64,000 bases of DNA, taken from IMG/VR virus record IMGVR_UViG_3300035181_001974. The stretch is one strand, 5' to 3'. A model generated the notes under the pieces. The model saw nothing but the letters and a program-made list of their open reading frames with translations. It was not told the DNA's origin and searched no databases. Positions 20,228 through 47,614 of this stretch are shown here, piece by piece (positions within the stretch are counted from its first letter, which is position 1; each line of letters begins with the position of its first letter). The translations under genes and the position numbers were made by a program. The DNA is from a virus.

Positions 20228-20301
20228 ATGTAAAACTGATCGCTTCCGGTTTACCATGACGACATGGTTCTTGCAGACATTGCTGCCGAGGTTGCCGCTG
20301 G

Positions 20302-20622
20302 TTGCATCGTTGTTTCATAGCTCGTCACCCAGCTGAAGCCCACCTGGAACAAGCTGCCCAAGTGGCTCCGCGTGCTGATACCCATTGGTATGGCCACGTT
20401 GCCGCAGATCGCCGACATGGCCGGCTTGGTACACACCAGATTTTCGTTCACGATGAAAGCGTGTACTACGAAATTAAGGGAAGGTGGTCTGACAAGGCGT
20501 GCTATCAGCTTGCACTGATGCGAATCAAGTTTCCTGAAGTGACTATCGTGGTCATTGACGGTGTCCAGTACCGTCAATTGGGTCTACAGTACCGTGACAA
20601 GGTAAGGTGGGAAGGTAAATGA
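20302..20622 (+). CDS. small PD-(D/E)xK-like ORF upstream of dnaE (possible homing-endonuclease relic)
   Basis: IFVHDESVYYEIKGRWSDK...TIVVIDG resembles the nuclease cores of HEG at 22907 ([12 protein letters not shown]...VVVASG) and the relic at 29868 (VYVEVKGWWRDD). Confidence 0.35.
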   Translation: MHRCFIARHPAEAHLEQAAQVAPRADTHWYGHVAADRRHGRLGTHQIFVHDESVYYEIKGRWSDKACYQLALMRIKFPEVTIVVIDGVQYRQLGLQYRDKVRWEGK

Positions 20623-20676
20623 CGCAGCAAGGAAAGGAGGACGCCAAGGGAAGCTCGGTGCGAGTGCCCCGACGAT

Positions 20677-22362
20677 TTGTCGGTTTGCACAACCACACGG
20701 GCTTCTCGTAATGCGCCCTTCGATGGTTTGGGCTATCCCGATGAACACTTCAAGTGGTGCATGGAGAACGGGCTCGATGGCCATGCCATCACCGAGCACG
20801 GGAACATGAACTCCTATGCCCACGCTCAACTGTGGGTCGAGGAGTGGGCCAAGGCCAATAAGGGAAAGTCGTTCAAGTACATTCCCGGCGTCGAGGCGTA
20901 CTACCATCCCGACCTGGAGCAATGGAAGAAGGACGTCGAACTCGCAGAGCAGGCGAAGGGAGACAGGAGGGTTGCGGCCAAGCTTGCTAAGGAGCAGGAA
21001 AAGCTGCAGACCAAGATCATCGCCACCATCGATGAAAATGATGAGACTGAGGACATTGAGATGTCCAACGCCTTGACTGTCGAAAACGAGGAAGAGTCCA
21101 AATCGACCAAACACTTCAATCCCGTCAACCGACGGCATCACCTAGTCATTCTGCCCAAGAACCAGAAGGGCCTGTTGGCGATCTTCGCAGCATGTTCGAA
21201 GGGATTCTTGAAGGGCTTCTACAAGTTCCCGCGCATTGACCATGCTGTCCTCAAAGAGGCAGCCAAAGGCGGCGACATCATCGTCAGCAGCGCTTGTATC
21301 GGCGGCATGCCGGCGTACTCCATATTCCAGGAAATCCAACAGTACAAGTTTGACGAGCTCGACGCACGGTTGCTCAGTGACCCTGTGCTGCTCGAGAAAT
21401 GCGTTGTCGCGGTGGGCAATACCTACCAGCACATGGTCGATGCAGTCGGCGAAGGAAACTACTTCCTCGAGCTGCAGTTCAATCGCCTACCGGCGCAGAA
21501 CCTCGTCAACCGCGCGATCCTGGAGTTCGCTCGTCGCAATGGGCTCAACAAGCAGCTGATCGTCACCGGCGATGCTCACTACTATAATCCCGATCGTTGG
21601 AAGGACCGTGAGCTCTACAAGCGCCTGGGTTGGATGAACTACCAGGAGATCAATCCTGACGCGATTCCGAAGTCGAAGGATGAGCTGAAGTGTGAGCTCT
21701 ATCCGAAGAACGCCCAACAGATGTGGGATGAGTACCAGCGCTCCAAGGAAGGCACCGACTGGTATGACGATGAAGTCGTCTGTGACGCCATTGAGCGGAC
21801 TCACGATATCGCACACAGTGTCATCGGGGAGATTCCACCCGATCGTTCGCCCAAGTTTCCGACGAGGTTGTTGGTGCCCGAAGGCACGACCTCGTTCAAT
21901 CACCTCATCTCGCTTTGTAAGGTGGGCATGGTGAAGCGTGGTCTTCAAGACAAGCCAGAGTATATCGCGCGCCTCAAGGAGGAACTCGGCGTCATTAAGG
22001 TGATGAAAAACTCTGACTACTTCATTTCCTACCAGAAGATCATGGAGCTGGCACGCAATGTGTGCCTTACCGGCCCAGCCCGCGGTTGTTTCGTTCCTGA
22101 GACGCGGGTTCTAATGGCTGACGGCATGCATGCTCCCATTGGCACCATCAAGGTGGGCGACGTTATCAAGGATGCATATGGTGTTGATCAGATGGTGACT
22201 CAGATCTTCAGGTATCAGGTTGATGAGGAGCTGCTAGAACTCGAGTTTGATGACGGTAAGAAGATCAGGTGCACCAAGGAGCATAAGTTTCTGACGAAGA
22301 ATCGTGGGTGGATTGAAGCACAACACTTGACTGAAGATGATGACCTAATCGAGGTTGAATGA
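20677..22362 (+). CDS. dnaE: DnaE N-terminal extein (PHP + palm start) fused to N-intein 1; true start at 20618 in another frame (frameshift)
   Basis: frame A 20618..20710 encodes MTQQGKEDAKGSSVRVPRRFVGLHNHTGFS* (PHP motif), frame of ORF continues NAPFDGLGYPDEH...; N-intein 1 = 22087..22359 (CFVPETRVLMADG...LIEVE). Confidence 0.8.
   Translation: MSVCTTTRASRNAPFDGLGYPDEHFKWCMENGLDGHAITEHGNMNSYAHAQLWVEEWAKANKGKSFKYIPGVEAYYHPDLEQWKKDVELAEQAKGDRRVAAKLAKEQEKLQTKIIATIDENDETEDIEMSNALTVENEEESKSTKHFNPVNRRHHLVILPKNQKGLLAIFAACSKGFLKGFYKFPRIDHAVLKEAAKGGDIIVSSACIGGMPAYSIFQEIQQYKFDELDARLLSDPVLLEKCVVAVGNTYQHMVDAVGEGNYFLELQFNRLPAQNLVNRAILEFARRNGLNKQLIVTGDAHYYNPDRWKDRELYKRLGWMNYQEINPDAIPKSKDELKCELYPKNAQQMWDEYQRSKEGTDWYDDEVVCDAIERTHDIAHSVIGEIPPDRSPKFPTRLLVPEGTTSFNHLISLCKVGMVKRGLQDKPEYIARLKEELGVIKVMKNSDYFISYQKIMELARNVCLTGPARGCFVPETRVLMADGMHAPIGTIKVGDVIKDAYGVDQMVTQIFRYQVDEELLELEFDDGKKIRCTKEHKFLTKNRGWIEAQHLTEDDDLIEVE
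22087..22359 (+). other. N-intein 1 (91 aa), followed by stop
   Basis: C1 after GPARG; block A CFVPETRVLMADG..GTIKVGDVI; block B TKEHKFLT. Confidence 0.8.
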
Positions 22363-22446
22363 AACTCAACTAAGTTTACCTGATCCTCGTCAAATGTCTA
22401 TTAGACAGGGATCTCAAGGCTTACATGAAGAGAGCGAACGCATATC

Positions 22447-22944
22447 ATGAAGCTCAGAAGTAAGACTGTCGTACCGTATAAGGGTGAGGTCGTAGACCTG
22501 TGTGTGGAAAACAGCCACACTTACAACGTGGAAGGTATTGCAGTCCACAATTCGGGCGGTGGCTCTCTGGTCGCCTACGTCCTATACATCACCGACTTGG
22601 ACCCGTTGTTCTGGGACCTGCCTTTCGCGCGATTCCTTAGCGTTCACAGGTGTCTGTCGCCAGACACAAAGGTATTGATGTCAGATGGTTCGTCGTCCGC
22701 GCTTCGAGACGTGAAAGTCGGTGACAGCGTTGTCTCACAGGATGGCTCACACCGTAAAGTTACGTTCACCATGACCACAAAACATGAGAAGACGTACCGC
22801 GTGAAGGTGAATGGTACTACGTTCACGTGTTCTGAAAATCATGTGTGGTTGACAGTGGGTCCTGATGGACAACCTGTGAAGAAGTATACATCTGAGCTGT
22901 CGACGAGTGACGAGCTGTACACGTACCACTATGAGCATCATTGA
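22447..22944 (+). CDS. dnaE: C-intein 1 (22447..22551) + extein 2 (22552..22650) + N-intein 2 (22651..22941)
   Basis: [35 protein letters not shown]|[33 protein letters not shown]|[13 protein letters not shown]... Confidence 0.8.
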
Positions 22945-23872
22945 GAAACAGTGTAAACACTGTGGTATTATGTTTCAGTTCAACTATGAGCCCAACTGCA
23001 AGGGTTCTGGTAGTAGGCTCCATCGCCCGTACTGCACTGATGAGTGTGCCGTCGCTCACAGGAAGCTGATGTCACACGCTCCCATGCCCTCGAGGCTTGT
23101 GAAGACGTGCGTCGAGTACGGCGATGAGTTCTACGTTCCAAAGTGTCACAACAACAGAAAACTATGTTCGAATGCGTGCAGGCACAAGTACACTGCGAAA
23201 GCGCTGACAAAGAATGAGCTCCGTACACTGACATGTGTACAGTGTCTAGGCACTTTCTCAACGAAGAACGTCAATCGCAGGTTCTGTTCACCCAAATGTT
23301 TCGCTGCATCGAGGTTTGACCGCCACACGTTGGTATGCGAAGTTTGTAGCGAACCGATCGTCACCAAGAAGAGCTACGTGCCGCGGTTCTGTTCCAAACG
23401 GTGCACCCGCGAGGCACAGTCACGTGATATGGTTGCTTCACATGTGAACGGACGCTCGTGTTTTCGTTCCGACATCCTAAACAGCCCGTACTTCAAGAGC
23501 TCGTTCGAAGCCGACTACTACAGATATTGCTTGCACCTCGGTAAGATGCCATTCTATGAACATAGGTCTTTCCATGTTGTCATCGATGGCAAAGAGAAGT
23601 GTTACACTCCAGACTTTTGGTTCAGTGATGAGGACCGATACGTGGAGTTGAAAGGTGTGCGAGAAGGCAAATCGCGTTTCTCAAAGTTGCTTAACTCAAA
23701 CGCACGTTCACGGGAAGTCGTTGTGGCGTCTGGTCAGCGCATCGACGTCGTGTACATGAATGACTTCTATGGTGAACTTCGTCGACAAGGTTTGTACCAT
23801 ACGATTGCCAATCTAGAGCACAGGGACTATGCAGGAACCCAACATCTCATCAGCAAGCACGGCCAAAATTGA
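22907..23872 (+). CDS. free-standing homing endonuclease (multi CxxC zinc-ribbon + PD-(D/E)xK core) between halves of intein 2
   Basis: six or more CxxC pairs; C-terminal [17 protein letters not shown] = PD..(D/E)xK motif; nested between N- and C-intein 2. Confidence 0.65.
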
Positions 23873-24566
23873 AGCTATCGAGGTTGTCGATGAAAGTGTA
23901 GAACTCATCGACATCGAGGTCGAAGGCCAGCATACGTTTTGGGTGTCCAACAACGATAGCGATTGGGTGCTGACACATAACTCTGGTGCTCCTGATATCG
24001 ACTGCGTCCACGAGGACCATCTTGTCGTCATGACAGACGGCACTCATAAGCGAGCTGTTGACATCATTGTCGGCGACGTCGTCCTGGGAGGCGATGGAAT
24101 GCCACACGCAGTAACTGCGACCTATGCTAGAAATTTGCGGCCATTCGAGGACGCTGTCTGGGTCAGAGTTAGGGCCAATGATGGTACGTTGGGCCACATT
24201 TTGGTGGTGCCCGGTCACAAATTTGTCAGAGCTGACGGCGTCATCGTGTACTGCCGCGACCTTAAGGTCGGAGATGAATTGATGGCATCATGCGGCAGCG
24301 TTGAGGTCGTATCGATCGAGCACGGTGGTTGGGGCTCTTCCAACGCTAGATACGTCGACCTGACTGTTGAAGACGATCACAGATTCCACGTGGTACCGTT
24401 CAATACGTCCATTCTAAGTGGAGGTGATCCATCACATGACGTCGGTTATTGCATGGGCGTCATTCCTGGCACGTTCCTTGCGTGTGGCGAAGGAGACAAT
24501 TTTTGCAGCGATTGGTGCGCGTCTAAGAGAAGAACAGACCACAGCGAGCGCAACTATGAAATTTGA
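23829..24566 (+). CDS. dnaE: C-intein 2 (to 23981) + extein 3 SGAPDID (23982..24002) + N-part of intein 3 (24003..24563)
   Basis: ...VELIDIEVEGQHTFWVSNNDSDWVLTHN|SGAPDID|CVHEDHLVVMTDGTHKRAVDIIVGDVV...PGHKFV...RYVDLTVEDDHRFHVV then a non-extein-like tail. Confidence 0.7.
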   Translation: MQEPNISSASTAKIEAIEVVDESVELIDIEVEGQHTFWVSNNDSDWVLTHNSGAPDIDCVHEDHLVVMTDGTHKRAVDIIVGDVVLGGDGMPHAVTATYARNLRPFEDAVWVRVRANDGTLGHILVVPGHKFVRADGVIVYCRDLKVGDELMASCGSVEVVSIEHGGWGSSNARYVDLTVEDDHRFHVVPFNTSILSGGDPSHDVGYCMGVIPGTFLACGEGDNFCSDWCASKRRTDHSERNYEI

Positions 24567-24868
24567 GCTGGAGTTGGGACCGTGTCCGAGCAACGTTGAT
24601 GCGGTGCAGCTTACAGACAACGGCGATTCTGCCGAGCAGATGATGTGATAGTGTCTGGCCTGGAAAGAATAGCTCAGACGAGAGCTGCAGAAAATCCTGA
24701 ATTTCAAGATTGTCAGGTCAAACTGCGCGTTAAAGGGTTTGAGCACGATTTGGCCCCCATACTATGGGGCTACGTCGTGCGATGACGCCGACGCCGACGA
24801 GCGCACAATTGACGCCATCTTCTGGCTCAAAGAAAATGCGTCCTCAAAGTTTGACGATGACATTAGCG

Positions 24869-26602
24869 TCACGCTGTGACGTCTAAGACGTAGCGAGAGT
24901 TGCTACAGCCATAGATGCGATAAACGCCGGCAGCCTCCGCTACCTGTTTTTCTGTTAGACCTTGCTTCTTGTTGGCTCGGTACTTGAACCTGTCGTAACG
25001 ATGCATGAAGTCAGTCCACCAGAAGCGAGCGACTGTGGTACCGTTGAACTTCATGCCTGAGGTGGCATAACCGTTTCCTCCCAAGCGATTGTCTGAGTAA
25101 GACATCAACCTCGCTGCATTGTTTTCTCTTGCTATAGCTTTTGCCTTTGATAGCAATTTTGACACCCCGCCTCGTACATGTGTGCCAAGCTTGAAGCACA
25201 GGCGAGCGATCTCAATCGTCGTTCTGTCTGCCCCATTTCGTGCCCACCTAAGGCTGCAGGCGCCTACGATTTCGCCCGATGAGGTTACCAATCGCACGGC
25301 AAATTGGGCCCTCACGTGACCGTCGAGGTGGCACTGATTGATGAATTCTCGAACTTCTTCGGGCTCGCAGCGTTCTGCTTTCAACTTACGCGCATCGACT
25401 TTGGTAGAAAACCCAAGGCGATGGCGCAACATGCTTTCGATTATCGGTCGTTTGTCGCGCCACTCATCCTCAAATAACGTGAAAAGCGATACGCCGGCTT
25501 TGAGGGACAGCAATCTCTTCTTTTCCGCGTGATCGTGCTCAAATCTATTGGCGGCCTCGCTGTGCCAGTATAGGCCATTGCACTCGATGGCAAACATGCG
25601 CGATGGAATGAGTATGTCGAGCTCCATTCCGCCGAGCGTCTTACGATCGCTAAGGACTGCGTCAGGTGCCAGCGTCTGGATAAATGCGTAGACGTCCTGT
25701 TGCCACCTGCTCGTTTTGTCTGACCAAGGCGGAAAGCAGGTGGGACACTTGGCCTCGTTGTTGAACACTGCGCCAACGCAACGCTCAAATATTGTTGAAC
25801 ATATCGTGCATTCGATGCGCGCTTTGGTGACAGTATCGACATATTCGTCAATGAGTTTAAGCTGCTTTTCTTTGAGGCGTTTTTGTACCTCGTCGTGCGT
25901 CAGCAACTTTGCCTTGCGCATTTTTTCAAGCGTTACGTCGCTAAAGAATCGTCCTTTCAACGAAGCGCTGATCTTCTTACTGCGAGATTCAATGATGCTA
26001 GACGTATCCTTTGTCAGGCCAAGTGACCAGCCGCTGTGCGTTGCATAATACCTCCGCAGGCTGTCGCTGATTTTTGCCGCCTTTTGTTTAAGGCTTTCGT
26101 TGTTTTCCTTTGTCTTGTCGGAGTTGTGGTGACCGTGTTCCTTGTAGTGAGCTCGCATGTTTGCAGCACTGGCTGACATGCGTTCGTCATTGTCTTTCGT
26201 CAGGCCTTTGTTCCATGACGAGGTGCCCTTGGACGCGTATGCGTGTTTTCGGCTACAACGTGGACACCGTTCGGGGTATCCTTTTTCTTGATCGATGAAC
26301 CTGACCCAGTCGCAACAATCGATGCACGTCTTCCTGCACCCTGGGTACCTTGTTTCATACACAACGACGGGTGATTTTTGGTGCGTTTTTGTGCAGTGCA
26401 ATGTCAACTTACGCCCGCTGTCATATGACGCCTCACACCACGGACACGCGTAAGTTGACACCTGTTTGGGAGGCCTGGCGTCTTCTCGCCTGTGTCGTGC
26501 CTCGTGGATCTTCAATGCTCGTAGCGTTTCGTGGTTTCGACCACAACGAGCGCATGTAAATTCAACTGTAGTTGAGTTAGGATTCATGTGATGGTCGTTC
26601 AT
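24869..26602 (-). CDS. homing endonuclease: C2H2 zinc fingers + NUMOD3 + Vsr-like (DUF559/EDxHD-type) nuclease + C-terminal GNAT-like domain; inserted antisense inside intein 3
   Basis: FTCARCGRNHETLRALKIHEARH and YACPWCEASY..HCTKTH fingers; NUMOD3-like GHHNSDKTKENNESLKQKAAKIS; nuclease core ELDILIPSRMFAIECNGLYWHSE...D; C-terminal RGGVSKLL...RFWWTD shared with 27288..29087. Confidence 0.7.
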   Translation of the reverse strand: MNDHHMNPNSTTVEFTCARCGRNHETLRALKIHEARHRREDARPPKQVSTYACPWCEASYDSGRKLTLHCTKTHQKSPVVVYETRYPGCRKTCIDCCDWVRFIDQEKGYPERCPRCSRKHAYASKGTSSWNKGLTKDNDERMSASAANMRAHYKEHGHHNSDKTKENNESLKQKAAKISDSLRRYYATHSGWSLGLTKDTSSIIESRSKKISASLKGRFFSDVTLEKMRKAKLLTHDEVQKRLKEKQLKLIDEYVDTVTKARIECTICSTIFERCVGAVFNNEAKCPTCFPPWSDKTSRWQQDVYAFIQTLAPDAVLSDRKTLGGMELDILIPSRMFAIECNGLYWHSEAANRFEHDHAEKKRLLSLKAGVSLFTLFEDEWRDKRPIIESMLRHRLGFSTKVDARKLKAERCEPEEVREFINQCHLDGHVRAQFAVRLVTSSGEIVGACSLRWARNGADRTTIEIARLCFKLGTHVRGGVSKLLSKAKAIARENNAARLMSYSDNRLGGNGYATSGMKFNGTTVARFWWTDFMHRYDRFKYRANKKQGLTEKQVAEAAGVYRIYGCSNSRYVLDVTA

Positions 26603-27445
26603 TCATTTTTGGCGTCCAACAAGAGCGTCGTTGTTCACAACACCGATCTTGCCAGGCGAGATGAGGTTCTTGATGAACTTCGAAACTTTTTTGGGTGGGA
26701 AAACGTCGTTCCCATCAGCAATTATAACTGTTTCAAACTAAAAACGCTTGTAAAGGATATCGGCAAGTTCTACGGCATCCCATTCGAGGAGACCAACGCT
26801 GCCACGCGGACCGTCGAGGACGAGGTCCGTAAGGCGACGATGAAGGAAGGCGACGACAAGAATCTGTTCGTCTTGACCTACGATGAGGCCATGGCCTTCC
26901 ACTGCAGGGCTCCTAAGGGCCCGGAGTCGAAGTCCATCTGCCAGGGCTGTAGCCCAGAGTGTAAGCAGCCGGTCAGCCCGTCGTTTCGCGGCTTCATTGA
27001 GAAGTACCCGGTCGTCGCCGAGTCGATCAAGATCCTCTTCAAGCAGAATCGTAGTCTCGGTCGTCACGCGGGTGGTGTGCTGATTGCAGACGATTTGCCC
27101 AACAAGATGCCTTTGGTGACGTCCAAAGGCAAGGCCGGCGTCCGCGAGCCACAGTCACCTTGGGTCGAGGGCGTAAATTATAAACACCTTGAGAAGATCG
27201 GAGAGTTCATCAAGTACGACCTCCTAGGTCTAGAAACGATGCGGCTCATCGAGCGCGCCATCGAGCTCATCATCAAAAAGGAACGACATGAAAGAGGGTG
27301 GTTTGAGATCCAACTCGACGATGGAACGACACGAGGCGTCTACGGCGACCAACGAATCGTCACCAGCAACAGGGGCACCATCCTTGCGAGGGAGCTCGGG
27401 CCCGGCGATGACATCGTGTCCTTCGAGGTGCCCACAGTGCAATGA
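26588..27445 (+). CDS. dnaE: very short C-part of intein 3 (at most 22 codons, ..HSFLASNKSVVVHN) + extein 4 (DnaE palm/fingers segment)
   Basis: VVVHN|TDLARRDEVLDELRNFFGWENVVPISNY..KTLVKDIGKFYGIPFEE aligns to E. coli [48 protein letters not shown]; later RHAGGVLIA, KYDLLGLETMRLIERAIELI; in-frame stop 3 codons upstream of the first listed start. Confidence 0.75.
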   Translation: MMVVHSFLASNKSVVVHNTDLARRDEVLDELRNFFGWENVVPISNYNCFKLKTLVKDIGKFYGIPFEETNAATRTVEDEVRKATMKEGDDKNLFVLTYDEAMAFHCRAPKGPESKSICQGCSPECKQPVSPSFRGFIEKYPVVAESIKILFKQNRSLGRHAGGVLIADDLPNKMPLVTSKGKAGVREPQSPWVEGVNYKHLEKIGEFIKYDLLGLETMRLIERAIELIIKKERHERGWFEIQLDDGTTRGVYGDQRIVTSNRGTILARELGPGDDIVSFEVPTVQ

Positions 27446-29087: not shown

Positions 29088-29105
29088 AAGTACCTTTACA
29101 AAGAC

Positions 29106-29582
29106 ATGGCAAAAGTCGTTGCTAACGTTGACGCACATACAAATGCGGTATCATTCAATGACATCAAGACCTGGTTCGAGCAGCACATGCACCCGGCCGT
29201 CATTGATTTCACCGATCCCAAACCTTACGAGGTCTACGAGAAAGGCAAGTGGGCAGGCATCTTCCAGTGCGTCGACCAGGACACGGCAGTGCTGATGGGC
29301 GATGACTCGTACAAGTTGATCAAGGACGTCCATGTCGGTGACGAGGTGACGGTCTTCGATGAAGTCAAGCAGCAGTTCACCACATCAGTCGTCGACGTCG
29401 TTTACGACCAAGGACCCAAGGAGTGCATCGAGCTCGTGTTCGACGACGGCAAGAAGCTTGTCTGCACCGCTGATCATCCCATCTTGACGAAGAATCGCGG
29501 GTGGGTTGAGGCACAGCACCTAACCGAAGACGACGAGTTGATTGGGTCTAGCAGTGGTTACGAAGCTCGTGGATTGACGTGA
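29106..29582 (+). CDS. dnaE: extein 5 (29106..29267) + N-intein 4 (29268..29579)
   Basis: AVIDFTDPKPYEVYEKGKWAGIFQ|CVDQDTAVLMGDDSYKLIKDVHVGDEV...; N-intein 4 tail (LVFDDGKKLVCTADHPILTKNRGWVEAQHLTEDDELI) is paralogous to the N-intein 1 tail. Confidence 0.75.
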   Translation: MAKVVANVDAHTNAVSFNDIKTWFEQHMHPAVIDFTDPKPYEVYEKGKWAGIFQCVDQDTAVLMGDDSYKLIKDVHVGDEVTVFDEVKQQFTTSVVDVVYDQGPKECIELVFDDGKKLVCTADHPILTKNRGWVEAQHLTEDDELIGSSSGYEARGLT

Positions 29583-29666
29583 GGCGGGCGTTTTGGTCGC
29601 AGGTTTCGCCGCGACCGTGGCCATGTCGCCTTACAGAGACGCAACAGGCCCACGACTCCGCAACAT

Positions 29667-30056
29667 GTGATTGTACGGACGCGCTCCGCTCATCGTAGCG
29701 CCCCTTTGTACTTTCTGCACTCAGCGGGCAACGGGAACGGAAAGAATGGCGTCGTCGACCTGTATGACAACTGGCGTCATTGCATGGACGAGGGCTTCAG
29801 CGAGGAGGAGATCAGGATCCAGCTCACAAGAGAGGCGTACATGATCTTCCATCGTCAATGACCGACGTTGGAGCTCTTTAAGCGGGTGTACGTGGAAGTC
29901 AAGGGCTGGTGGCGTGATGATGCTAGGGAGAAGTTTGACGCATTCGTAACGTTGCATCCGACGCTCAAGTGTGCACTTGTCAGTGGATATGACCTACAGT
30001 TGCTAGAAAAGAAGGAGACGACGCTTGAAGCTTGTGTCATCACGCAGCGTGGGTAA
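29667..30056 (+). pseudogene. decayed homing-endonuclease relic (PD-(D/E)xK core) between halves of intein 4, with in-frame TGA at 29859..29861
   Basis: ...MIFHRQ*PTLELFKRVYVEVKGWWRDDAREKFDAF resembles [15 protein letters not shown] of HEG 22907; far too short for a functional HE. Confidence 0.5.
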
Positions 30057-30624
30057 GCGCCACGTCTACGACATCGAGGTGCGAAATCATCATAATTTCG
30101 TCGCTAACGACGTCGTTGTTCACAATTGCACGGGCCAGGGCGCTCAGCGACTCTTTGTCAAAGGCAAGCCCAAGAGCATCATCGACATCGCGACGCTGAC
30201 CAGCATCTATCGCCCGGGTCCCTTGGCCGCCAAAGTCGATCGACTGTACTTGGAGGCGAAGAATGACGGCAAGGAGTTGGAGTGGGGCGATCACCGCGTC
30301 AACGACATCCTGAAGAAGACATACTCGTGTTTGACGGGTGACACACATATCCTTACTGAGCAAGGTGAGGTTCCCATTAGACAAATCGTTGAACAAGGAA
30401 TGGTGGGAACTAAGCTTCCGTCATACAATGAAATGACGAAGACCGTCGAGATGGACGAAGTTGTCGCTGTCGCCTCAAACGGCGTACGTGACATCATCGA
30501 GGTTGAGCTGGAGGGTGGAGAAACTTTGTCTTTGACTGAAGATCACCTTGTCATGACGCCTCGTGGTTGGGTGCAAGCAGGTGAACTGACGTCTGAAGAC
30601 GAGATTTTGGGAATGAAGTACTGA
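30025..30624 (+). CDS. dnaE: C-intein 4 (30025..30126) + extein 6 (30127..30327) + N-intein 5 (30328..30621)
   Basis: MKLVSSRSVGKRHVYDIEVRNHHNFVANDVVVHN|CTGQG..IATLTSIYRPGPLAAKVDRLY...KKTYS|CLTGDTHILTEQGEVP...; IYRPGPL matches DnaE ALFRPGPL. Confidence 0.8.
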   Translation: MKLVSSRSVGKRHVYDIEVRNHHNFVANDVVVHNCTGQGAQRLFVKGKPKSIIDIATLTSIYRPGPLAAKVDRLYLEAKNDGKELEWGDHRVNDILKKTYSCLTGDTHILTEQGEVPIRQIVEQGMVGTKLPSYNEMTKTVEMDEVVAVASNGVRDIIEVELEGGETLSLTEDHLVMTPRGWVQAGELTSEDEILGMKY

Positions 30625-30630
30625 AACCAG

Positions 30631-30830
30631 GCTACTTCGTCGTGCCATCACTCAACCTCATCATCGAGTACGACGGCGACTATTGGCACAGTAACCCAGC
30701 GAAGCATGAACTAACACCTGCGATGAAGAAGCAATTTAGGCTTGATCAATTATGGACGCTTGCCACAAGAACTTGAGGCTTCACGGTGTACCGCGTCTGG
30801 GAGTCTGATGCCTTGAACTATCACCTCAAA
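30631..30830 (+). pseudogene. Vsr-like (DUF559/EDxHD-type) nuclease-core relic with in-frame stop, between halves of intein 5
   Basis: YFVVPSLNLIIEYDGDYWHSNPAKHE...RLDQLWTLATRT*GFTVYRVWESD matches only the catalytic core of HEGs 24869/27411/31990; no DNA-binding region. Confidence 0.5.
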
Positions 30831-30847
30831 TTGAGGACAATTTAGAC

Positions 30848-31093
30848 ATGAAGATTGATGATTTTGAAGAGGAGTTGCTTACGTCGTTCAAGAACTTTAT
30901 CAACACGATGAAGTCACATACGGCATTTGGAAAGCGTGATGATCTCACGTATGCCGACTGGTTCGACACATTTCGAGCTTATGAAGAGGTCGGAAATGAT
31001 ATGGAGCTCGAATACCATGGTCAACGTGTTTTGAGTGTTGATGGACCAGTGTGCCAACTCTGCGCATCATCATTGAACATGAAAGAAAAATGA
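30848..31093 (+). CDS. hypothetical small protein inside intein 5 gap
   Basis: 81-aa ORF. Confidence 0.35.
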   Translation: MKIDDFEEELLTSFKNFINTMKSHTAFGKRDDLTYADWFDTFRAYEEVGNDMELEYHGQRVLSVDGPVCQLCASSLNMKEK

Positions 31094-31094
31094 T

Positions 31095-31412
31095 ATGAGC
31101 GCAGATCTTTACACTAGCGAGATCGATGACGATGTTTATGGATCTCTAACGCTAGAGATGAACGTTCATGGGAATTTGCGAATCATTGCATATGATCCTG
31201 GGACTAGAGATTTGGTAGGTTGCTGTCAGTTTCCACCCTCGCATGAGGGTTTCAACGAAGCCCAACGATTGATCAACGCTTTGCAAGAATGGATGCGTCA
31301 TGTGGGGGAAAATCTCAACCCTTGCCGAGTCGTTCTAGGCAGTGATGCTTTGTCGCGCTCAATGTCATTACACATTGTTTGTCAGACTCATCGTGAAACG
31401 GAGCGTAAGTGA
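31095..31412 (+). CDS. hypothetical small protein inside intein 5 gap
   Basis: 105-aa ORF, start 1 nt after previous stop. Confidence 0.35.
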   Translation: MSADLYTSEIDDDVYGSLTLEMNVHGNLRIIAYDPGTRDLVGCCQFPPSHEGFNEAQRLINALQEWMRHVGENLNPCRVVLGSDALSRSMSLHIVCQTHRETERK

Positions 31413-32110
31413 TGCCTGACGTAGTTCCCGTCAAGATCCGTGCGATCAAGCGTGTTCCTGCACAGCCTGTGTACGACATCCAGGTCAAGAAGAACAACAA
31501 CTTCTTCGCAAATGGCCTTCTCGTGCATAACTGCATAATTTTTCAGGAACAGGTGATGGAACTCGCCGAGAAGGCTGCCGGCTTCCCGAAGGACAAGTGT
31601 GACGAGGTCCGTCGCGCAATCATGAAGCGCAGCATCTCGGGCGGTGAGGCGGCAAAGAAGGCAGCCCAAGAGACCCGTGACGGGTTCGTCAAGGGTTGCA
31701 TCGCCAACGGTTATACCGAGAAGGTGGCCAACAACCTCTACGACAAGATTCTGTACTTCGCGGGCTACGGCTTCAATAAAAGTTTGTACTTTTCGGAACC
31801 AGTAAATACCTTTTTTTCAGACGGCACGTTCAAAGAGACAAAGCAGCTTCAACACATCGAACCCGGCGACCTGGTCATGTCTCGTGATGAGAATTCAGGT
31901 AAAAACATCCTCGTCCCTGTTGTTGCAAAACACGACCACGGTGAGCTAGACTTGGTAGAAGTGGAGTTGGTGACCGGAGAGAAGGTAAAGTGCACGTGGG
32001 ATCACAAGTTCAGGACGAAGGAGACAAACGAGATGTTGCCCCTGTGGATGATTGCCGAACGGGGCCTCAGCATCGTTGTGACCGATGTAGCAGGCTCTTC
32101 GTCTACCTGA
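31409..32110 (+). CDS. dnaE: C-intein 5 (31409..31531) + extein 7 (31532..31780) + N-intein 6 (31781..32107, Ser1)
   Basis: ...PVYDIQVKKNNNFFANGLLVHN|CIIFQEQVMELAEK...KILYFAGYGFNK|SLYFSEPVNTFFSDGTFKE...TWDHKF; extein matches E. coli GIILYQEQVMQIAQ...VEKFAGYGFNKS. Confidence 0.8.
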   Translation: MMPDVVPVKIRAIKRVPAQPVYDIQVKKNNNFFANGLLVHNCIIFQEQVMELAEKAAGFPKDKCDEVRRAIMKRSISGGEAAKKAAQETRDGFVKGCIANGYTEKVANNLYDKILYFAGYGFNKSLYFSEPVNTFFSDGTFKETKQLQHIEPGDLVMSRDENSGKNILVPVVAKHDHGELDLVEVELVTGEKVKCTWDHKFRTKETNEMLPLWMIAERGLSIVVTDVAGSSST

Positions 32111-33039
32111 AGGCCTACGAAAAACACCAAGCTAGGTGCCAAGGATTCATACTCGGTGACAGTGAGAGTGTCACATGCCAAGTCTGTGGCTTCACGGGTA
32201 AGGCACTGGCAAAGCACTTGTCGGGGACGCATGGTATGAGCAAAGAAGAATACCTGAAAGCGTACCCGACTGCCGCAATCACATCGAAAGTCTCGACAGC
32301 GCGTTTCAAGCATCGTGGGCAGAATTTCGCCTGGCTCAAACGAGCGAAGGCACGCGGTGATGATTTGACTGCCTACAAGGAAAAGATGGGCCGTGCGGTC
32401 AGTGAGGCCATCACGAGCAATCCGGGCGAGAGGAAACGTCGCTCTGAACTAATGGGAGAACTTAATCGACGACCTGAAGCCCGTAAACGTTCATCAGACG
32501 TTGCAAGACTAACGTCAACCCGGCCTGAGATACTCAAGGCACGTGCTGAGCGCCTGGCCCGTTGGCGTGAGTTGAACCCCGATGAGTTCTACGAAAAGTG
32601 CACAAAAGCTGCACATGCTATTTGGCATAGCATTCCGGAATTAGCGTTGTTTGATTTGTTGAAAAACGTTGAAGGTTATGATTTTGTTCATAATCAGGTC
32701 GTCAAGTCAGTTGCTTTTCCAAACAAATCTAAAAGAAAGCAAGTTGACATTGCCGATCGATCAAGACACATTTATGTTGAATTTGATGGAATCATCCATT
32801 TTAATGCACGTATTAAAGGCGAGGATAATTTTGAACGAGTGAAGTGCATGGATGCAATGCTTGATGATTACATCACTAAACATGATTGGACACTCATTCG
32901 AATTTCTTACGATCAGTTCTCATACAAGGATGGCGGTCGCTTCGAACCTGATTGCTTGAAAAAGCTTTTTGAGATCCTGAAAGATCCTCGACCTGGCGTT
33001 CATCGGATAGGAAAAGCGTATGAAAAGACCGCCGTTTGA
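31990..33039 (+). CDS. free-standing homing endonuclease (Zn finger + basic NUMOD-like linker + Vsr-like core) between halves of intein 6
   Basis: CDRCSRL..HQARCQ and CQVCGF..H finger; core HIYVEFDGIIHFNARIKGEDN...LIRISYDQF (DUF559/Vsr pattern). Confidence 0.65.
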   Translation: MHVGSQVQDEGDKRDVAPVDDCRTGPQHRCDRCSRLFVYLKAYEKHQARCQGFILGDSESVTCQVCGFTGKALAKHLSGTHGMSKEEYLKAYPTAAITSKVSTARFKHRGQNFAWLKRAKARGDDLTAYKEKMGRAVSEAITSNPGERKRRSELMGELNRRPEARKRSSDVARLTSTRPEILKARAERLARWRELNPDEFYEKCTKAAHAIWHSIPELALFDLLKNVEGYDFVHNQVVKSVAFPNKSKRKQVDIADRSRHIYVEFDGIIHFNARIKGEDNFERVKCMDAMLDDYITKHDWTLIRISYDQFSYKDGGRFEPDCLKKLFEILKDPRPGVHRIGKAYEKTAV

Positions 33040-33244
33040 AATCGCACTGAATGACATTGCCCAACGCATGGGTCTGAGTCCGATCGAACTGTTACGGGCC
33101 GCGGCACGTTACCGACGCAAAAGCGAAACGAAGGTTGAACTCCAGCCGACTGACGAGTACATTGAAGAAGAGTATGCTAAAGCAATGCTTGATGAACCGA
33201 ACGCAGGAGCGATCGAAGACCTGTTGAAGGACCTGCTCACATGA
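33020..33244 (+). CDS. hypothetical small protein
   Basis: 74-aa ORF between HEG6 and C-intein 6. Confidence 0.3.
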   Translation: MKRPPFEIALNDIAQRMGLSPIELLRAAARYRRKSETKVELQPTDEYIEEEYAKAMLDEPNAGAIEDLLKDLLT

Positions 33245-34371
33245 GTAACATCAAGTCTATCACACCCGTGGGTCGACACCAGACCTATGACCTCGAAGTC
33301 GATCACCCGGATCACCAGTTCTATCTCGCTAACGGGATACTGACGTCTAACAGCCATGCAGTGGCATACGCCATTGACAGCTTCTGGTGCGCCTGGCTGA
33401 TGACATATCACGAGGAGGAATGGCTGTGTGCCTATCTCGAAAGCATGTCGCACACTCCTGCTCAACGTGCTAAGGCGTTCAGCGAGGTAAAGGCCTTGGG
33501 CTATCAGATCGTCCCGATCGACATCAACCTGGCGGGGCTCGGGTGGACCGCGCTGCCCGGCAAGAAGTTGATGCCGTCGATGACGTCCTGCAAGGGTGTC
33601 GGCGACTCGGCGGTCGAAGAGATCATGGCCAACCGTCCCTACAACACTATCGAGGAGTTGCTGTGGGATGACAACTTCGAGTGGAAACACAGCAAGTTCA
33701 ACAAGAAGGCGATGGAGGCCCTGGTCAAGATCGGTGCCTTCGGCAGTATGGACATCGTGGGCGAAGGCAAGGTCTTCAACAACTATCATCACATGCACGA
33801 GGTCCTCTTCGGTTCTCACGTGGAGACCGTGACCAAGAAGCGCAAGGGCGTCGAGGTCACCGAAGAGGTCGACATCGATCACGGGGCGTTGATCAAGCGA
33901 CACCCGAAGTCTGACCCGCACGAGGGCCTTAAGAACTTCTACCAGTTGGTCAGGGACTACGCTGACATCGAGGACTGGTCGTCTTCTGAACGTGCTCAAA
34001 ATATGGTCGACGTCTTCGGTGCTTTGGACGTCACCGCCATGATTGACATCGAAATCTTGGCTGCCTTGGAGAAGAAGGGCGTCAATAGCATTGACGACCT
34101 GGAGCACGGTGACACGGCGGTCGTCTGGTTTGTCACGGCCCCTGTTGCTGCAAAGAAGGGTGGCAAGCCGGTGACGGGCATCAAGAAGAAGACCCGCAAT
34201 GGCAAGGAATATGTGCAAATCTTTGCGGTTGGACCCACTGGCAAGGCCACGAAGATTTCTGTCTGGGGCGGCAAGGAGCTTCCTGACCCCTTCATCCTGT
34301 GTTGTGCCGAGGTCAAGAGGGACGACTTTGGCGCGTCGACGACGGTCTGGAAGTTGAGGGAAATCACGTAA
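33241..34371 (+). CDS. dnaE: C-intein 6 (33241..33351, ends TSN) + extein 8 = DnaE C-terminal region (fingers end, OB domain)
   Basis: MSNIKSITPVGRHQTYDLEVDHPDHQFYLANGILTSN|SHAVAYAIDSFWCAWLMTYH..; LGYQIVPIDINLAG matches E. coli GLKILPPDINSG; KGVGDSAVEEIMANR matches KGVGEGPIEAIIEAR. Confidence 0.8.
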   Translation: MSNIKSITPVGRHQTYDLEVDHPDHQFYLANGILTSNSHAVAYAIDSFWCAWLMTYHEEEWLCAYLESMSHTPAQRAKAFSEVKALGYQIVPIDINLAGLGWTALPGKKLMPSMTSCKGVGDSAVEEIMANRPYNTIEELLWDDNFEWKHSKFNKKAMEALVKIGAFGSMDIVGEGKVFNNYHHMHEVLFGSHVETVTKKRKGVEVTEEVDIDHGALIKRHPKSDPHEGLKNFYQLVRDYADIEDWSSSERAQNMVDVFGALDVTAMIDIEILAALEKKGVNSIDDLEHGDTAVVWFVTAPVAAKKGGKPVTGIKKKTRNGKEYVQIFAVGPTGKATKISVWGGKELPDPFILCCAEVKRDDFGASTTVWKLREIT

Positions 34372-34564
34372 ACATAAAACCCATGTACACCTACGAACAG
34401 TTGATCGAGAAGATAGTCCGTGCCAAGGTCTCGCTGGCAACCACCGCGGGCACTCGGACTCGTGCCCAGCTGAATGCGATCACGAGGGCTACGCTCCGTG
34501 CAACTGTGGGGCCACGGCACACAACAGTCATATCTCTGCGTCTTTGGAGGACCTGAAGCTATGA

Positions 34565-47457: not shown

Positions 47458-47614
47458 AATTCGTTACGTTGGTATAACTGTAGGACCGTGGAATAAAGGT
47501 GTTCTGGCAACTCAAGAACACAAACGTAAATTGGGTGTTCCCAAGCCCCTAGAACAAAAGAACATTCAGAACGTATTGCTCAATCAAAACGTGAAATGTG
47601 GGCAAAAGGATTGA
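47411..47614 (+). pseudogene. GIY-YIG homing-endonuclease-like relic inside the CCA gene interruption
   Basis: KGFVCSLIDPITPKIRYVGIT mirrors I-TevI GIYQIKNTLNNKVYVGSA (GIY...YIG spacing); ORF only 67 aa. Confidence 0.4.

Follow-up and report, generated by a model that had tools for sequence, protein, structure and literature searches.

Split inteins whose halves flank a free-standing homing endonuclease gene (HEG) have been reported from ocean metagenomes under the name "fractured genes" (Dassa et al. 2009, PMC2677866). Three DnaE loci belong to that set, as do the gp41-1, NrdJ-1, and IMPDH-1 split inteins, and the accompanying model already has the HEG being lost and the split intein left behind. 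Split inteins also occur in cyanobacterial DnaE (Ssp/Npu), where the halves are encoded at distant loci and the native C-extein is Cys-Phe-Asn (PMC3585056). The NrdA of Aeromonas phage Aeh1 is split by mobE and reassembled via insertion-derived tails (Crona et al. 2010, PMC3045599), while the T4 mobA/gene 60 cassette combines a homing endonuclease with a 50-nt translational bypass (Bonocora et al. 2011, as cited in bioRxiv 10.1101/2022.08.31.505936). Genes with many inteins include the Trichodesmium ribonucleotide reductase, with four, and Anaeramoeba Prp8, with five (both cited in PMC10710043).

The original prediction described a fractured dnaE gene in viral metagenomic DNA, and its existence was confirmed by our analysis of the window, the whole 64-kb stretch of DNA studied. 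The DnaE-coding stretch had been placed at 20618-34371; the location was correct, but the gene starts at an ATG at 20619. It runs from 20619 to 34371 on the plus strand as eight separately translated ORFs (P1-P8).

20619-20708 plus 20716-22362, plus strand: P1, dnaE codons 1-30, extein 1, and the intein 1 N fragment
20716-22086, plus strand: extein 1, remaining PHP domain and beginning of the palm, up to ...GPARG (from Pfam and the L003/Taq alignment)
22087-22362, plus strand: intein 1 N fragment, 91 aa, Cys1, block B CTKEH; stop codon included
22447-22944, plus strand: P2, intein 1 C fragment (35 aa, ...AVHN), extein 2 (33 aa, SGGGS...FLSVHR), and intein 2 N fragment (97 aa, Cys1, CSENH)
23829-24566, plus strand: P3, intein 2 C fragment (51 aa, ...LTHN), extein 3 (7 aa, SGAPDID), and intein 3 N fragment (187 aa)
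26591-27445, plus strand: P4, a first part (26591-27286) and a tail (27287-27445)
26591-27286, plus strand: P4 first part, intein 3 C fragment (17-18 aa, MVVHSFLASNKSVVVHN) and extein 4 (215 aa)
29106-29582, plus strand: P5, a 15-aa head (MAKVVANVDAHTNAV), extein 5 (39 aa), and intein 4 N fragment (104 aa, Cys1, CTADH)
30025-30624, plus strand: P6, intein 4 C fragment (34 aa), extein 6 (67 aa), and intein 5 N fragment (98 aa, Cys1, LTEDH)
31409-32110, plus strand: P7, intein 5 C fragment (41 aa), extein 7 (83 aa), and intein 6 N fragment (109 aa, Ser1, CTWDH)
33241-34371, plus strand: P8, intein 6 C fragment (37 aa, ...GILTSN) and extein 8 (339 aa, HhH and C-terminal region)

When joined, the host-protein parts of the eight ORFs make a DnaE of 1270 aa. 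The joined exteins cover the full length of L003, an intact homologue of 1193 aa, with no overlaps between them, and their alignment with Taq DnaE (2hpi, E 1.4e-85) runs through every junction, which bears out the predicted colinearity. Pfam searches revealed PHP, DNA_pol3_alpha, DNA_pol3_finger, and HHH_6 in DnaE order across the ORFs, with Hint-family matches at the ORF ends. The PHP His residues are kept, as are the catalytic motifs PDID (extein 3) and KYDLLGL (extein 4, where KYDLLGLE bears the third catalytic Asp), and none of the eight extein segments has an internal stop or frameshift. As at least seven independent contigs from several samples carry the window sequence, the longest being 309 kb, an assembly artifact is ruled out; the P8 protein is identical on 7 contigs. 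No intron RNA families were found in the locus. P6 has a TTG start with an AAGGAG motif 7 nt ahead of it, and a clear Shine-Dalgarno motif is absent from several pieces.

The N-terminal motifs HNHTGFS and ITEHGNM were correctly recognized in the original prediction, but they do not share an unbroken frame. They span a frame break at 20709, preceded by the remains of a HEG.

20302-20622, plus strand: HEG remnant upstream of dnaE, a decayed 3' end of PD-(D/E)xK type, ending ...WEGK-stop and overlapping the dnaE ATG
20619-20708, plus strand: dnaE codons 1-30, MTQQGKEDAKGSSVRVPRRFVGLHNHTGFS, N-terminal extension and PHP motif I; last codon Ser TCG
20709-20715, plus strand: coding gap TAATGCG, comprising a stop codon, one extra base, and the candidate landing codon GCG

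The first 30 codons lie in a different frame from the codons that follow, and reading resumes at CCC (20716) after the 7-nt gap. Ungapped relatives have TCN or AGY directly before CCN TTY GAY GG. Eight gapped variants were found, interrupted at the same codon by 7, 9, 9, 11, 12, 15, 15, and 16 nt; the gap ends in UCN in six of them. Each has an N-terminal extension of 12-18 residues, and the gapped variants have in common a 19-25-residue N-terminus carrying an (R/K)KE motif, as against mostly 7 residues in ungapped relatives. A HEG, remnant, or trace lies directly upstream in 6/8 gapped variants versus once among ~75 ungapped loci. The remnant in the window is 48% identical to residues 203-267 of an intact 267-aa gene in the same place in L001 (tblastn), and full-length copies precede dnaE in L001, L002, and L010.

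Judging from these sequences, ribosomes probably bypass the gap. On meeting the stop after Ser-30, the ribosome would most likely hop 7 nt (UCG to GCG) and resume at Pro, yielding the peptide ...HNHTGFSPFDGLGYPDEHFK. The gap is read as the 3' edge of a decayed HEG cassette that brought in, besides the HEG, a further N-terminal extension and a substitute for the first conserved motif; the gap belongs to the cassette and, by analogy with T4 mobA/gene 60, probably shielded its carrier from its own nuclease. As that cassette is described in the cited preprint, the likeness includes a HEG immediately upstream that overlaps the target gene start, the arrival of a new N-terminal extension with a replacement conserved host motif, a coding gap a few dozen codons in, and a gap that persists where the HEG has often decayed. 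On the same source, the host gene differs (dnaE here, a topoisomerase there), as do the nuclease (PD-(D/E)xK-like versus MobA family), the gap (7-16 nt, with no take-off stem-loop found, versus 50 nt), and the take-off codon (Ser UCN versus Gly GGA). Since there is no sequence homology between the two, the dnaE 5' cassette is an analogue of the T4 system and not a member of it.

It is possible, if in our view doubtful, that the gap is not bypassed, so that the first 30 residues form a micro-peptide followed by a later start, or the motif is lost and PHP is inactive. A TTG at 20677 could open the downstream frame, in the window alone; the landing codon GCG of the window is merely near-cognate, pairing at two of three positions; and a conserved stem-loop stimulator was not found, unstimulated short hops being inefficient in E. 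coli according to the review in bioRxiv 10.1101/2022.08.31.505936. In 6/7 variants examined, however, the downstream frame opens just 3-9 nt before the resume codon and then has no start codon for 17-31 codons, yet PFDGLGYP..AITEHG is conserved with synonymous changes. The upstream side is constrained equally: on both flanks all 15 codons vary synonymously among the eight variants with the amino acids conserved. Furthermore, the gaps fall in all three frames and in 8/8 variants a UCN Ser precedes the stop codon with which the gap opens; ungapped relatives use AGY for this Ser in 10/17 cases, and the hop product ...HNHTGFS-PFDGLG... has exactly the spacing of ungapped relatives and Taq DnaE. 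A bypass remains the reading we prefer.

The six inteins all keep Cys or Ser at position 1, the block-B His, the terminal Asn, and Ser, Thr, or Cys at +1. As N+C fusions, five of them reach Pfam gathering scores for intein/Hint families, while intein 6 falls below these (E 1.4e-5) yet matches the Npu DnaE intein (4kl5) at E 2.8e-11. Intein 1 matches the NrdJ-1 split intein (8ubs, E 8e-10) and intein 2 matches gp41-1 (E 2e-6). A PDB sequence search with intein 3 gave no match, but the structural matches to its AlphaFold model were Hint folds only, ~30 at E<1e-3. Hint homology or fold is supported for each of the six, in keeping with the six DNA-level-split inteins originally predicted, and a six-frame scan of the 64 kb revealed no Hint-like segments outside this gene. 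Every C fragment opens with a start codon, and P1 and P2 are separated by four in-frame stop codons. The break site is canonical in five inteins, as in Npu DnaE, NrdJ-1, and gp41-1. In intein 3 the break lies near the C-terminus, and the N fragment extends beyond its blocks A, B, and F into an unconstrained tail, which past ...HRFHVVPF is 15% identical between the window and L013.

Intein 6 resembles the cyanobacterial DnaE intein in its host protein and has the Npu intein as its closest solved relative, with the N/C break aligning. By our mapping onto the DnaE motif, its site would lie 4 residues downstream (GFNK/S versus Y/CFN). It also has Ser1, Ser+1, and a terminal SN, where the cyanobacterial inteins have Cys at both positions and an Asn preceded by Ser or His, and its halves are adjacent with a nuclease gene between them.

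The DNA between the pieces contained the following nuclease genes and relics.

22363-22446, plus strand: gap 1, a deletion scar in which the last ~25-31 codons of a PD-(D/E)xK nuclease gene remain
22907-23872, plus strand: intein 2 gap nuclease gene, 321-aa ORF, likely ATG 22931; zinc-finger-like repeats, PD...ELK core
24869-26602, minus strand: intein 3 gap nuclease gene, 577 aa, Vsr-like/EDxHD-type with a Mom/GNAT-like C-terminal domain
27288-29087, plus strand: P4/P5 nuclease gene, 599-aa ORF, probable start 27408 giving 559 aa; paralogue of the 577-aa nuclease
29583-30024, plus strand: gap 4, nuclease-gene relic
30625-31408, plus strand: gap 5, Vsr-like relic 30636-30842 (last 69 residues) and small ORFs 30848-31093 and 31095-31412
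31990-33039, plus strand: intein 6 gap nuclease gene, 349 aa, ROS/MucR-type zinc finger, ...YVEFDGIIHF core

Intact genes in gaps 2, 3, and 6 and relics in gaps 4 and 5 had been predicted correctly; gap 1, thought to be empty, holds a 3'-end relic as well. Each intact gene has a homologue in a relative, at the same place for those of the intein 2 and intein 3 gaps and of the P4/P5 junction. The intein 2 gap nuclease, with PHROG endonuclease-family matches, is 78% identical to that of L021. The 577-aa nuclease matches phrog_3339, annotated "homing endonuclease" (E 3.5e-59), weakly resembles I-Bth0305I (3r3p), and shares 57% identity over 570 aa with the product of a minus-strand gene of L013; its gene overlaps the P4 start. 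The P4/P5 nuclease (phrog_3339, E 1e-59) is 62% identical to that of L092, and the 349-aa nuclease is 54% identical to a 379-aa gene of L013 and 35% to a 467-aa gene of L023. An overlapping 74-aa ORF (33020-33244) may be the frameshifted 3' end of this last gene, the frame break being weakly supported.

The relics were traced by tblastn. That of gap 1 (22392-22484) is 61-74% identical to the C-termini of genes filling the gap in L001, L023, L092, and L093; that of gap 4 (29886-30050) corresponds to the last 55 of 288 residues of an intact PD-(D/E)xK gene in L016 (64% identity, E 9e-18); and that of gap 5, for which PHROG matches were also obtained, is 58% identical to a 278-aa gene of L016 (E 1e-23). 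The intein 4 gap of L023 holds a different, intact gene for a 248-aa Vsr-like protein. Gaps 1, 4, and 5 thus retain the last 31, 55, and 69 codons of genes intact in L001/L023, L016, and L016/L092, respectively. Free-standing HEGs would have landed within inteins already invading dnaE, and the relatives support the earlier reading of the mixed decay stages as a snapshot of the homing cycle.

A seventh junction, between P4 and P5 (27287-29150), consists of a splicing-dead intein remnant and a nuclease gene.

27287-27445, plus strand: P4 C-terminal tail, 52 aa, degenerate second half of an intein N fragment

The tail scored 19.4 bits against an HMM of intein N fragments, as high as none of 500 shuffles, and was the sole non-training match in a six-frame scan of the window; it had no Pfam match. 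Its block B has changed from TxxH to YGDQ, its dN/dS is 0.37 against L022, and it is common to relatives L022, L092, L095, and L096. The P5 head is block-G-like, as judged by eye. The junction has no Cys/Ser nucleophile, block A, block-B His, or C-terminal Asn, and because these catalytic residues are missing, we consider it a degenerate remnant and expect a two-chain enzyme. Six trans-splicing reactions had been predicted to rebuild one chain of ~1250 aa, a claim that this junction contradicts; the product is probably two chains. The two would hold together non-covalently here, with the remnant of tail and head perhaps serving as a docking handle. As in Aeh1 NrdA, the coding sequence of an essential enzyme is interrupted by a free-standing nuclease gene with no functional intein at the site, and both halves bear extra tails missing in unsplit homologues. 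Unlike in NrdA, the P4 tail is recognizable as intein-derived and is shared by several relatives, its role in assembly being putative.

In the proposed scheme, the eight ORFs would be translated independently, matching intein halves would pair (N halves are acidic, most C halves neutral or basic), and six protein trans-splicing reactions would yield one chain from exteins 1-2-3-4 and another from exteins 5-6-7-8. We infer both the splicing activity of the six inteins and their orthogonality. Inteins 1 and 4, with N fragments 48% and C fragments 41% identical, are similar enough that they might cross-react, mis-joining exteins.

We think it unlikely that only some junctions splice and that elsewhere, most plausibly at intein 3 and possibly at 6, the halves just hold fragments together, giving three or more non-covalent chains. 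The P4/P5 junction indicates that the lineage tolerates an unspliced break with intein-derived tails, Aeh1 NrdA functions in this way (PMC3045599), and intein 3 combines its missing PDB match with an atypical break, a C fragment of just 17-18 aa, and an unusual block B (PGHKF, without the usual Thr). However, the position 1 nucleophile, block-B His, terminal HN/SN, and +1 nucleophile are invariant in inteins 3 and 6 across diverged copies, which would be unexpected if the chemistry were dispensable, and they are precisely the residues lost at P4/P5. In addition, extein 3 has only 7 aa between two inteins and holds the catalytic Asp pair, which would be hard to position unless covalently joined.

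For every one of the six inteins, diverged relatives (50-78% identity) supply copies split in the same way; the relatives with split inteins are L001, L013, L016, L021, L023, L092, L093, L095, and L096. Related metagenomic phages have up to five junctions each, and the piece with the intein 2 C fragment, SGAPDID, and the intein 3 N fragment was found in 4 further clusters. In L095 and L096 the pieces lie 5.4-5.6 kb apart with unrelated genes between them and are still intact. The arrangement in the window is, on these sequences, the extreme of a pattern recurring in a clade of large metagenomic phages. That the locus is a dead gene, wrecked by successive nuclease-gene invasions in a phage replicating with another polymerase of its own or of the host, is very improbable: eight pieces, a frame break at codon 30, a junction without a working intein, and three visibly decaying nuclease genes do resemble heavy damage, and the window shows 64 kb of a >300-kb genome that could encode another polymerase elsewhere, but the extein segments are uninterrupted with all catalytic motifs retained, the split pieces are conserved in relatives even kilobases apart, dN/dS is 0.04-0.27 for intein halves (0.20 for the intein 1 N fragment against L001) versus 0.16 for extein 8, with synonymous divergence saturated, and unconstrained segments of the same ORFs, such as the intein 3 tail, look neutral.

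From the anatomy, homologies, conservation, and recurrence in relatives, all directly observed, we consider it likely that this is the working DnaE-type replicative polymerase gene of a >300-kb jumbo phage, repeatedly invaded by inteins and free-standing HEGs and expressed by trans-splicing, two-chain assembly, and a 5' hop. The first interpretation is partly supported; it had missed the seventh junction, the 5' coding gap, and the recurrence in relatives.

Fractured genes as such have been described before, and the locus shares with those of Dassa et al. the architecture at each of six junctions, nuclease families (Vsr-like, of the I-Bth0305I type, and others), and homologues of NrdJ-1 (intein 1) and gp41-1 (intein 2). 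Each of their loci, however, was a short fragment bearing a single split intein, part of a second being seen in one DnaE fragment, whereas here a complete gene has six, with a 7-aa extein between two of them, an opposite-strand nuclease gene, an intein broken near its C-terminus, and a junction decayed to a non-splicing remnant. Like the Trichodesmium and Anaeramoeba genes as cited, it encodes a conserved essential protein into which inteins have inserted independently at several sites; theirs are contiguous and cis-splicing, and these are all split at the DNA level. In the published literature, as cited in PMC10710043, we found no protein with more than five inteins, none of them split, so that six split inteins exceed any published count found and, on that source, are as exceptional as predicted. 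One polymerase gene thus displays six split inteins, a dead remnant, and HEGs at several stages of decay.

The dnaE gene was found distributed over eight ORFs (P1 to P8) on the + strand, at 20619-34371 of the window. Pfam searches placed PF02811, PF07733, PF17657 and PF14579 across the pieces in canonical DnaE order (PHP, palm or DNA_pol3_alpha, DNA_pol3_finger, and HHH_6), with Hint-family matches at the ORF ends. The host-protein parts of the ORFs (exteins 1-8), cut at the intein boundaries, summed to 1270 aa and held neither stop codons nor frameshifts. When joined, they covered the full length of the uninterrupted 1193-aa DnaE homologue of a related metagenomic virus (L003), without gaps or overlaps, and they were colinear with Thermus aquaticus DnaE (2hpi) across every junction (E 1.4e-85). 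The original prediction of a DnaE in eight colinear pieces was thereby borne out. The PDID motif of extein 3 aligned with PDID of the Taq enzyme, and KYDLLGL of extein 4 with its KMDFLGL; we take the PDxD and KxDxLGL motifs to be the catalytic residues, after E. coli D401, D403, and D555. Extein 3, which carries the catalytic Asp pair, is only seven residues long and sits between two inteins.

Junctions in the reassembled protein (spliced position; flanking residues, with a slash at the junction)
Intein 1: 487/488; GPARG/SGGGS
Intein 2: 520/521; FLSVHR/SGAPDID
Intein 3: 527/528; PDID/TD
Junction without a working intein (P4/P5): 742/743; ELIIKKER/SFNDIK
Intein 4: 781/782; GIFQ/CTGQ
Intein 5: 848/849; KTYS/CIIFQ
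Intein 6: 931/932; GFNK/SHAV

At six of the junctions the upstream ORF runs into an intein N fragment and a stop codon, and the next ORF on the same strand opens with a start codon and the C fragment. The N fragments stop after 91-109 residues (187 in intein 3), and the C fragments carry blocks F and G and end in HN, or SN in the case of intein 6, followed by Ser, Thr, or Cys. P1 and P2 lie in one frame, yet four in-frame stops separate them. Position 1, invariant among homologues, is Cys in inteins 1-5 and Ser in intein 6. The block B sequences are, in order, CTKEH, CSENH, PGHKF, CTADH, LTEDH, and CTWDH; intein 3 lacks the Thr and keeps the His, which is invariant in 11 homologues of this intein. 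The C-terminal Asn and +1 residues are HN/S, HN/S, HN/T, HN/C, HN/C, and SN/S.

The fused N and C fragments of inteins 1, 4, and 5 passed the Pfam gathering score of Intein_splicing, and that of Hom_end_hint was passed by intein 2 and, after removal of a duplicated stretch, by intein 3. The intein 6 fusion fell under the Pfam cut-off (E 1.4e-5); it matched the Npu DnaE split intein (PDB 4kl5) with E 2.8e-11 and the same break point. Intein 1 matched NrdJ-1 (E 8e-10) and intein 2 matched gp41-1 (E 2e-6), both of which come from the original "fractured genes" (PMC2677866). Intein 3 had no sequence match in the PDB. Its N fragment was modeled by AlphaFold on 11 homologues as a confident all-beta domain (pLDDT 80-90), and the approximately 30 best PDB structure matches in a fold search were exclusively Hint folds. 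Block F already lies inside this N fragment, and the C fragment is merely MVVHSFLASNKSVVVHN (17 aa), so the break lies near the intein C-terminus. The six DNA-level split inteins originally proposed were thus upheld as Hint domains, by Pfam for inteins 1-5, by 4kl5 for intein 6, and also by fold matches for intein 3. Introns in their place were ruled out, since an Rfam E-value scan of 19500-35500 returned no intron RNA family and every C fragment opens with a start codon. The window scan revealed no Hint-like sequence elsewhere. Pairwise identity among the six is 22-33%, except between inteins 1 and 4 (48% for the N and 41% for the C fragments). The co-resident inteins are presumably mutually orthogonal.

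Near-identical DNA was not found among GenBank phages, and phage proteins matched extein 1 at only about 25% identity (Bacillus and Streptomyces phages), so the virus has no cultured relative; the species-representative genomes likewise held no relative above 50% identity and so gave no pointer to a host. The same sequence was found on contigs of up to 309 kb, and an assembly artefact was ruled out by the presence of the same proteins on 6-7 independent contigs. The neighboring genes encode ThyX, dTMP kinase, RNA repair proteins, DNA methylases, thymidine kinase, and dCMP deaminase, a neighborhood typical of a large phage. Scans for promoters and terminators did not rise above shuffled background.

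Each of the six inteins recurs, split in the same way, among related metagenomic virus loci, at 50-78% identity.

Relatives with the same split inteins
L001 and L093: intein 1
L021: intein 2
L013: inteins 3, 5, and 6
L016: inteins 4 and 5
L023: inteins 1, 4, and 6
L092: inteins 1, 3, 5, and 6, plus the P4/P5 junction
L095 and L096: inteins 1, 2, and 3, plus the P4/P5 junction

Compared with L013, L001, L023, and L022, the intein halves showed non-synonymous divergence of 0.05-0.25 at saturated synonymous sites. The resulting dN/dS of 0.04-0.27 (0.16 for extein 8), together with the conserved catalytic residues, suggests protein splicing activity; the intein 3 tail past block F evolves freely. 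From these sequence comparisons we consider it likely that this dnaE is functional through trans-splicing. Short ORFs predominate among the 268 database relatives of extein 8, with lengths that match splits at site 6, site 5, or the P4/P5 junction, and none of approximately 58 more distant marine relatives shows an interruption. With seven junctions, the window holds the most fragmented dnaE copy seen.

Several features of the locus were observed in the comparison with relatives. In L095 (10621-16240) and L096 (9070-11028 and 11846-17216), 2-5.6 kb of unrelated genes, including 17 small ORFs, DnaJ, UDP-galactopyranose mutase, and EamA, lie between the two halves of either intein 3 or the P4/P5 junction; these pieces are losing their linkage but remain intact. 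The fingers region (exteins 5-7, 29106-32110) has only 42-58% identity to L001 and L002, versus 71-74% for exteins 1 and 8, and the C-extein of intein 5, CIIFQEQVMELA, agrees with that of the distant L003 and of intein 5 carriers and not with that of L001 and L002 (GLLVFQEGVMALA). This pattern suggests that flanking sequence was imported along with the inteins, by co-conversion or recombination. The palm region of extein 4 contains a Cys-rich insertion of about 25 aa (26900-26980, ...FHCRAPKGPESKSICQGCSPECKQPV...), also present in L013 and L022 but not in L001, L002, or L003, that may be a small zinc-binding loop.

The DNA between the intein halves (gaps 1-6) holds free-standing nuclease genes or their remains. 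Gap 2 contains an intact 321-aa ORF of the PD..ELK type, gap 3 an intact 577-aa Vsr-like gene on the opposite strand (phrog_3339, E 3.5e-59), and gap 6 an intact 349-aa gene. Of the nuclease genes in gaps 1, 4, and 5, only the last 31, 55, and 69 codons remain, respectively. The surviving part is always the 3' end, abutting the start of the next polymerase piece, and intact versions occupy the same places in relatives (gap 1 in L001, L023, and L092; gap 4 in L016; gap 5 in L016 and L092). Of the mix of intact, decayed, and absent endonuclease genes described originally, the intact genes in gaps 2, 3, and 6 and the relics in gaps 4 and 5 stood, and the supposedly empty gap 1 proved to hold its 31-codon relic. 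The intein 4 gap is occupied by a PD-(D/E)xK gene in L016 and by a Vsr-like gene in L023; one intein gap can host different nuclease families.

The two large Vsr-like genes, that of gap 3 (24869-26602, - strand) and the one between P4 and P5 (27288-29087, + strand), are paralogues with 32% identity, and both have a Mom-like/GNAT-like C-terminal domain (phrog_1384, with a weak Acetyltransf_1 match). The minus-strand nuclease gene and P4 meet head to head, their starts overlapping by 12 nt, an arrangement also seen in L013. A 74-aa ORF at 33020-33244 bridges the gap-6 nuclease gene and P8, overlapping the end of the former and the start of the latter. It resembles the C-terminus of the longer L023 homologue; the nuclease gene may have a frame break near 33030, which could be early decay. 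The remainder of the intein 5 gap holds two small ORFs without assigned function, 30848-31093 (81 aa), called as a gene in all independent contigs, and 31095-31412 (105 aa). Outside dnaE, a 67-aa ORF after the dCMP deaminase gene (48953-49156, ...IQYDSEYWHG...) is what remains of a Vsr-like nuclease gene, with tblastn matches to nuclease genes of L023, L016, and L092. A gene for a CCA-adding/poly(A)-polymerase-type nucleotidyltransferase is present as two ORFs about 200 nt apart, 47005-47457 and 47654-48529, which match Pfam head domain positions 1-77 and 73-125. The small ORF between them (47411-47614) contains IRYVGIT and is possibly a GIY-YIG nuclease relic; the nucleotidyltransferase would add another fractured gene to the window, this one without an intein.

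The seventh junction, between P4 and P5, differs from the others. P4 has a 52-aa C-terminal tail and P5 a 15-aa head, both absent from unsplit relatives, and between them lies a 599-aa paralogue of the gap-3 nuclease. An HMM of intein N fragments gave the tail 19.4 bits, a score reached by 0 of 500 shuffles, and the tail was the sole non-training match in a six-frame scan of the window. It aligns with the second half of an N fragment, where YGDQ stands in place of the block-B TxxH (Gln at the His position). The remnant lacks the nucleophile, block A, and the terminal Asn, and therefore the junction cannot splice; with the block-B His also missing, a seventh working intein is ruled out. Tails of this type are conserved in L022, L092, L095, and L096 (dN/dS 0.37 versus L022), and in L096 the two halves of the junction lie 5.4 kb apart. 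The closest precedent is the NrdA of phage Aeh1, split by mobE, in which insertion-derived tails are needed for assembly (PMC3045599). The P4/P5 junction would have moved from splicing to a docking remnant. The single chain rebuilt by six trans-splicing reactions that was originally predicted is contradicted by this non-splicing junction, and two chains, of about 790 and 545 aa, are expected as the end product of the locus.

Neither is the N-terminus of the polymerase continuous, as had been assumed. The ORF from 20619 stops after ...FVGLHNHTGFS, and the polymerase resumes one base out of frame. Codon 30 (Ser, TCG) is followed by TAATGCG (20709-20715), and reading resumes at CCC (20716). Ungapped relatives have this Ser followed directly by Pro/Thr-Phe-Asp-Gly. 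Eight independent variants carry an insert at exactly this Ser codon; a second pattern scan of viral contigs gave only three that were already known.

Variants with a gap at the Ser codon (locus; insert length)
Window, 20619-20716, + strand; 7 nt
L010; 9 nt
L020 (L020/L021); 9 nt
L095, 6690-6760; 11 nt
L017; 12 nt
L027 (L026/L027); 15 nt
L002, 5860-5990; 15 nt
L001, 5009-5130; 16 nt

In all eight, a stop codon directly follows the UCN Ser codon, designated the candidate take-off codon. The insert ends in a UCN codon in six of the eight (GCG in the window), which gives UCN-UCN take-off and landing pairs. The two codons are identical in two of these, and the remaining UCN-UCN pairs are presumably readable by a single tRNA-Ser(UGA). 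The pairs UCG to GCG in the window and UCU to ACU in L020 match at two of three positions. On both flanks of the gap, synonymous variation was found at all 15 codons with the protein sequence kept, and a hop from the Ser to the landing codon gives the exact spacing of Taq DnaE.

Ribosomal bypassing is the most likely reading of these comparisons, and we rate it at slightly better than even; the hop product would be FVGLHNHTGFS-PFDGLGYPDEHFK. Of the seven variants examined, six have a downstream frame that begins just 3-9 nt ahead of the resume codon and then lacks a start codon for 17-31 codons, which makes re-initiation past the gap unlikely. Read-through or +1 frameshifting as a general mechanism is ruled out, since the gaps fall in all three frames and several hold two different stop codons. 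Around the take-off codon, no hairpin common to the variants was detected; the folding z-scores (-0.06 to -1.95) were similar to those of ungapped relatives.

The gapped variants have further features in common. All have an N-terminus of 19-25 residues with an (R/K)KE motif, versus mostly 7 residues in ungapped relatives. In six of the eight, a PD-(D/E)xK nuclease gene or its remains lies directly upstream and overlaps the ATG; three copies are intact, and the window retains 65 codons. The PHROG matches of this gene are phrog_9019 and phrog_945 (PD-(D/E)xK/resolvase-like), not the MobA family. The anatomy resembles that of the T4 mobA/gene 60 cassette, where the bypass insert protects its carrier from its own nuclease (bioRxiv 10.1101/2022.08.31.505936). 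The present arrangement differs in having no sequence homology to that cassette, another host gene, no take-off hairpin, and far shorter gaps. We give an even chance to one joint reading: the gaps would be programmed hop sites that, with the upstream nuclease, the N-terminal extension, and a replacement FVGLHNHTGFS, form a mobile cassette, the second independently evolved family of homing endonuclease gene plus bypass after T4 mobA/gene 60, and, in the same gene, the replicase would consist of two chains, put together by six orthogonal natural split inteins and a docking handle left by the dead intein.

Other relatives vary at the same boundary. L014 (5213-5330), L018, L031, and L032 have an HNH/endonuclease VII-like ORF (...GLLCRNCN...) directly upstream of an ungapped dnaE; with different nuclease ORFs at this place, the 5' boundary of dnaE appears to be a preferred site for several nuclease families. 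L016 (111-300) has the (R/K)KE-type extension (MNSNNRKETVRTPNRF...) with neither a gap nor an upstream nuclease gene, and may be either a precursor state or a cassette from which the gap was precisely deleted.

Work published in 2009 described split inteins whose halves are separated by a free-standing nuclease gene; it included three single-intein DnaE fragments and a nuclease-loss model (PMC2677866). The present locus shares with those fractured genes the split halves, here at six junctions, and the nuclease ORFs or 3' relics in between. The cyanobacterial DnaE intein precedes Cys-Phe-Asn (PMC3585056) and has a different insertion point, four residues upstream of intein 6 at GFNK/S. A phage dnaE with multiple split inteins was not found in the literature, and the published maximum that we found is five inteins, contiguous (PMC10710043), versus six split inteins here. 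Also new are the 7-aa extein between two inteins, the conserved atypical break in intein 3, the candidate bypass cassette, and the putative docking remnant at P4/P5.

Should all six reactions take place, eight translation products would be assembled into an essential enzyme by six trans-splicings, the largest intein number reported for one gene among the literature found. The locus would then also be a natural experiment in how much fragmentation by selfish elements a gene can survive. Among its relatives the proposed stages can be followed, from invasion through nuclease decay and nuclease loss to the separation of the pieces and, at last, a loss of splicing with a docking remnant kept. As tools, it offers six natural split inteins, one Ser/Ser and one with a 17-aa C fragment, of the kind sought for multi-fragment protein ligation. 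If the 5' gap is bypassed, there would be eight natural variants for the study of short hops, and programmed hopping tied to nuclease self-immunity would count as a solution found repeatedly, not as a peculiarity of T4.
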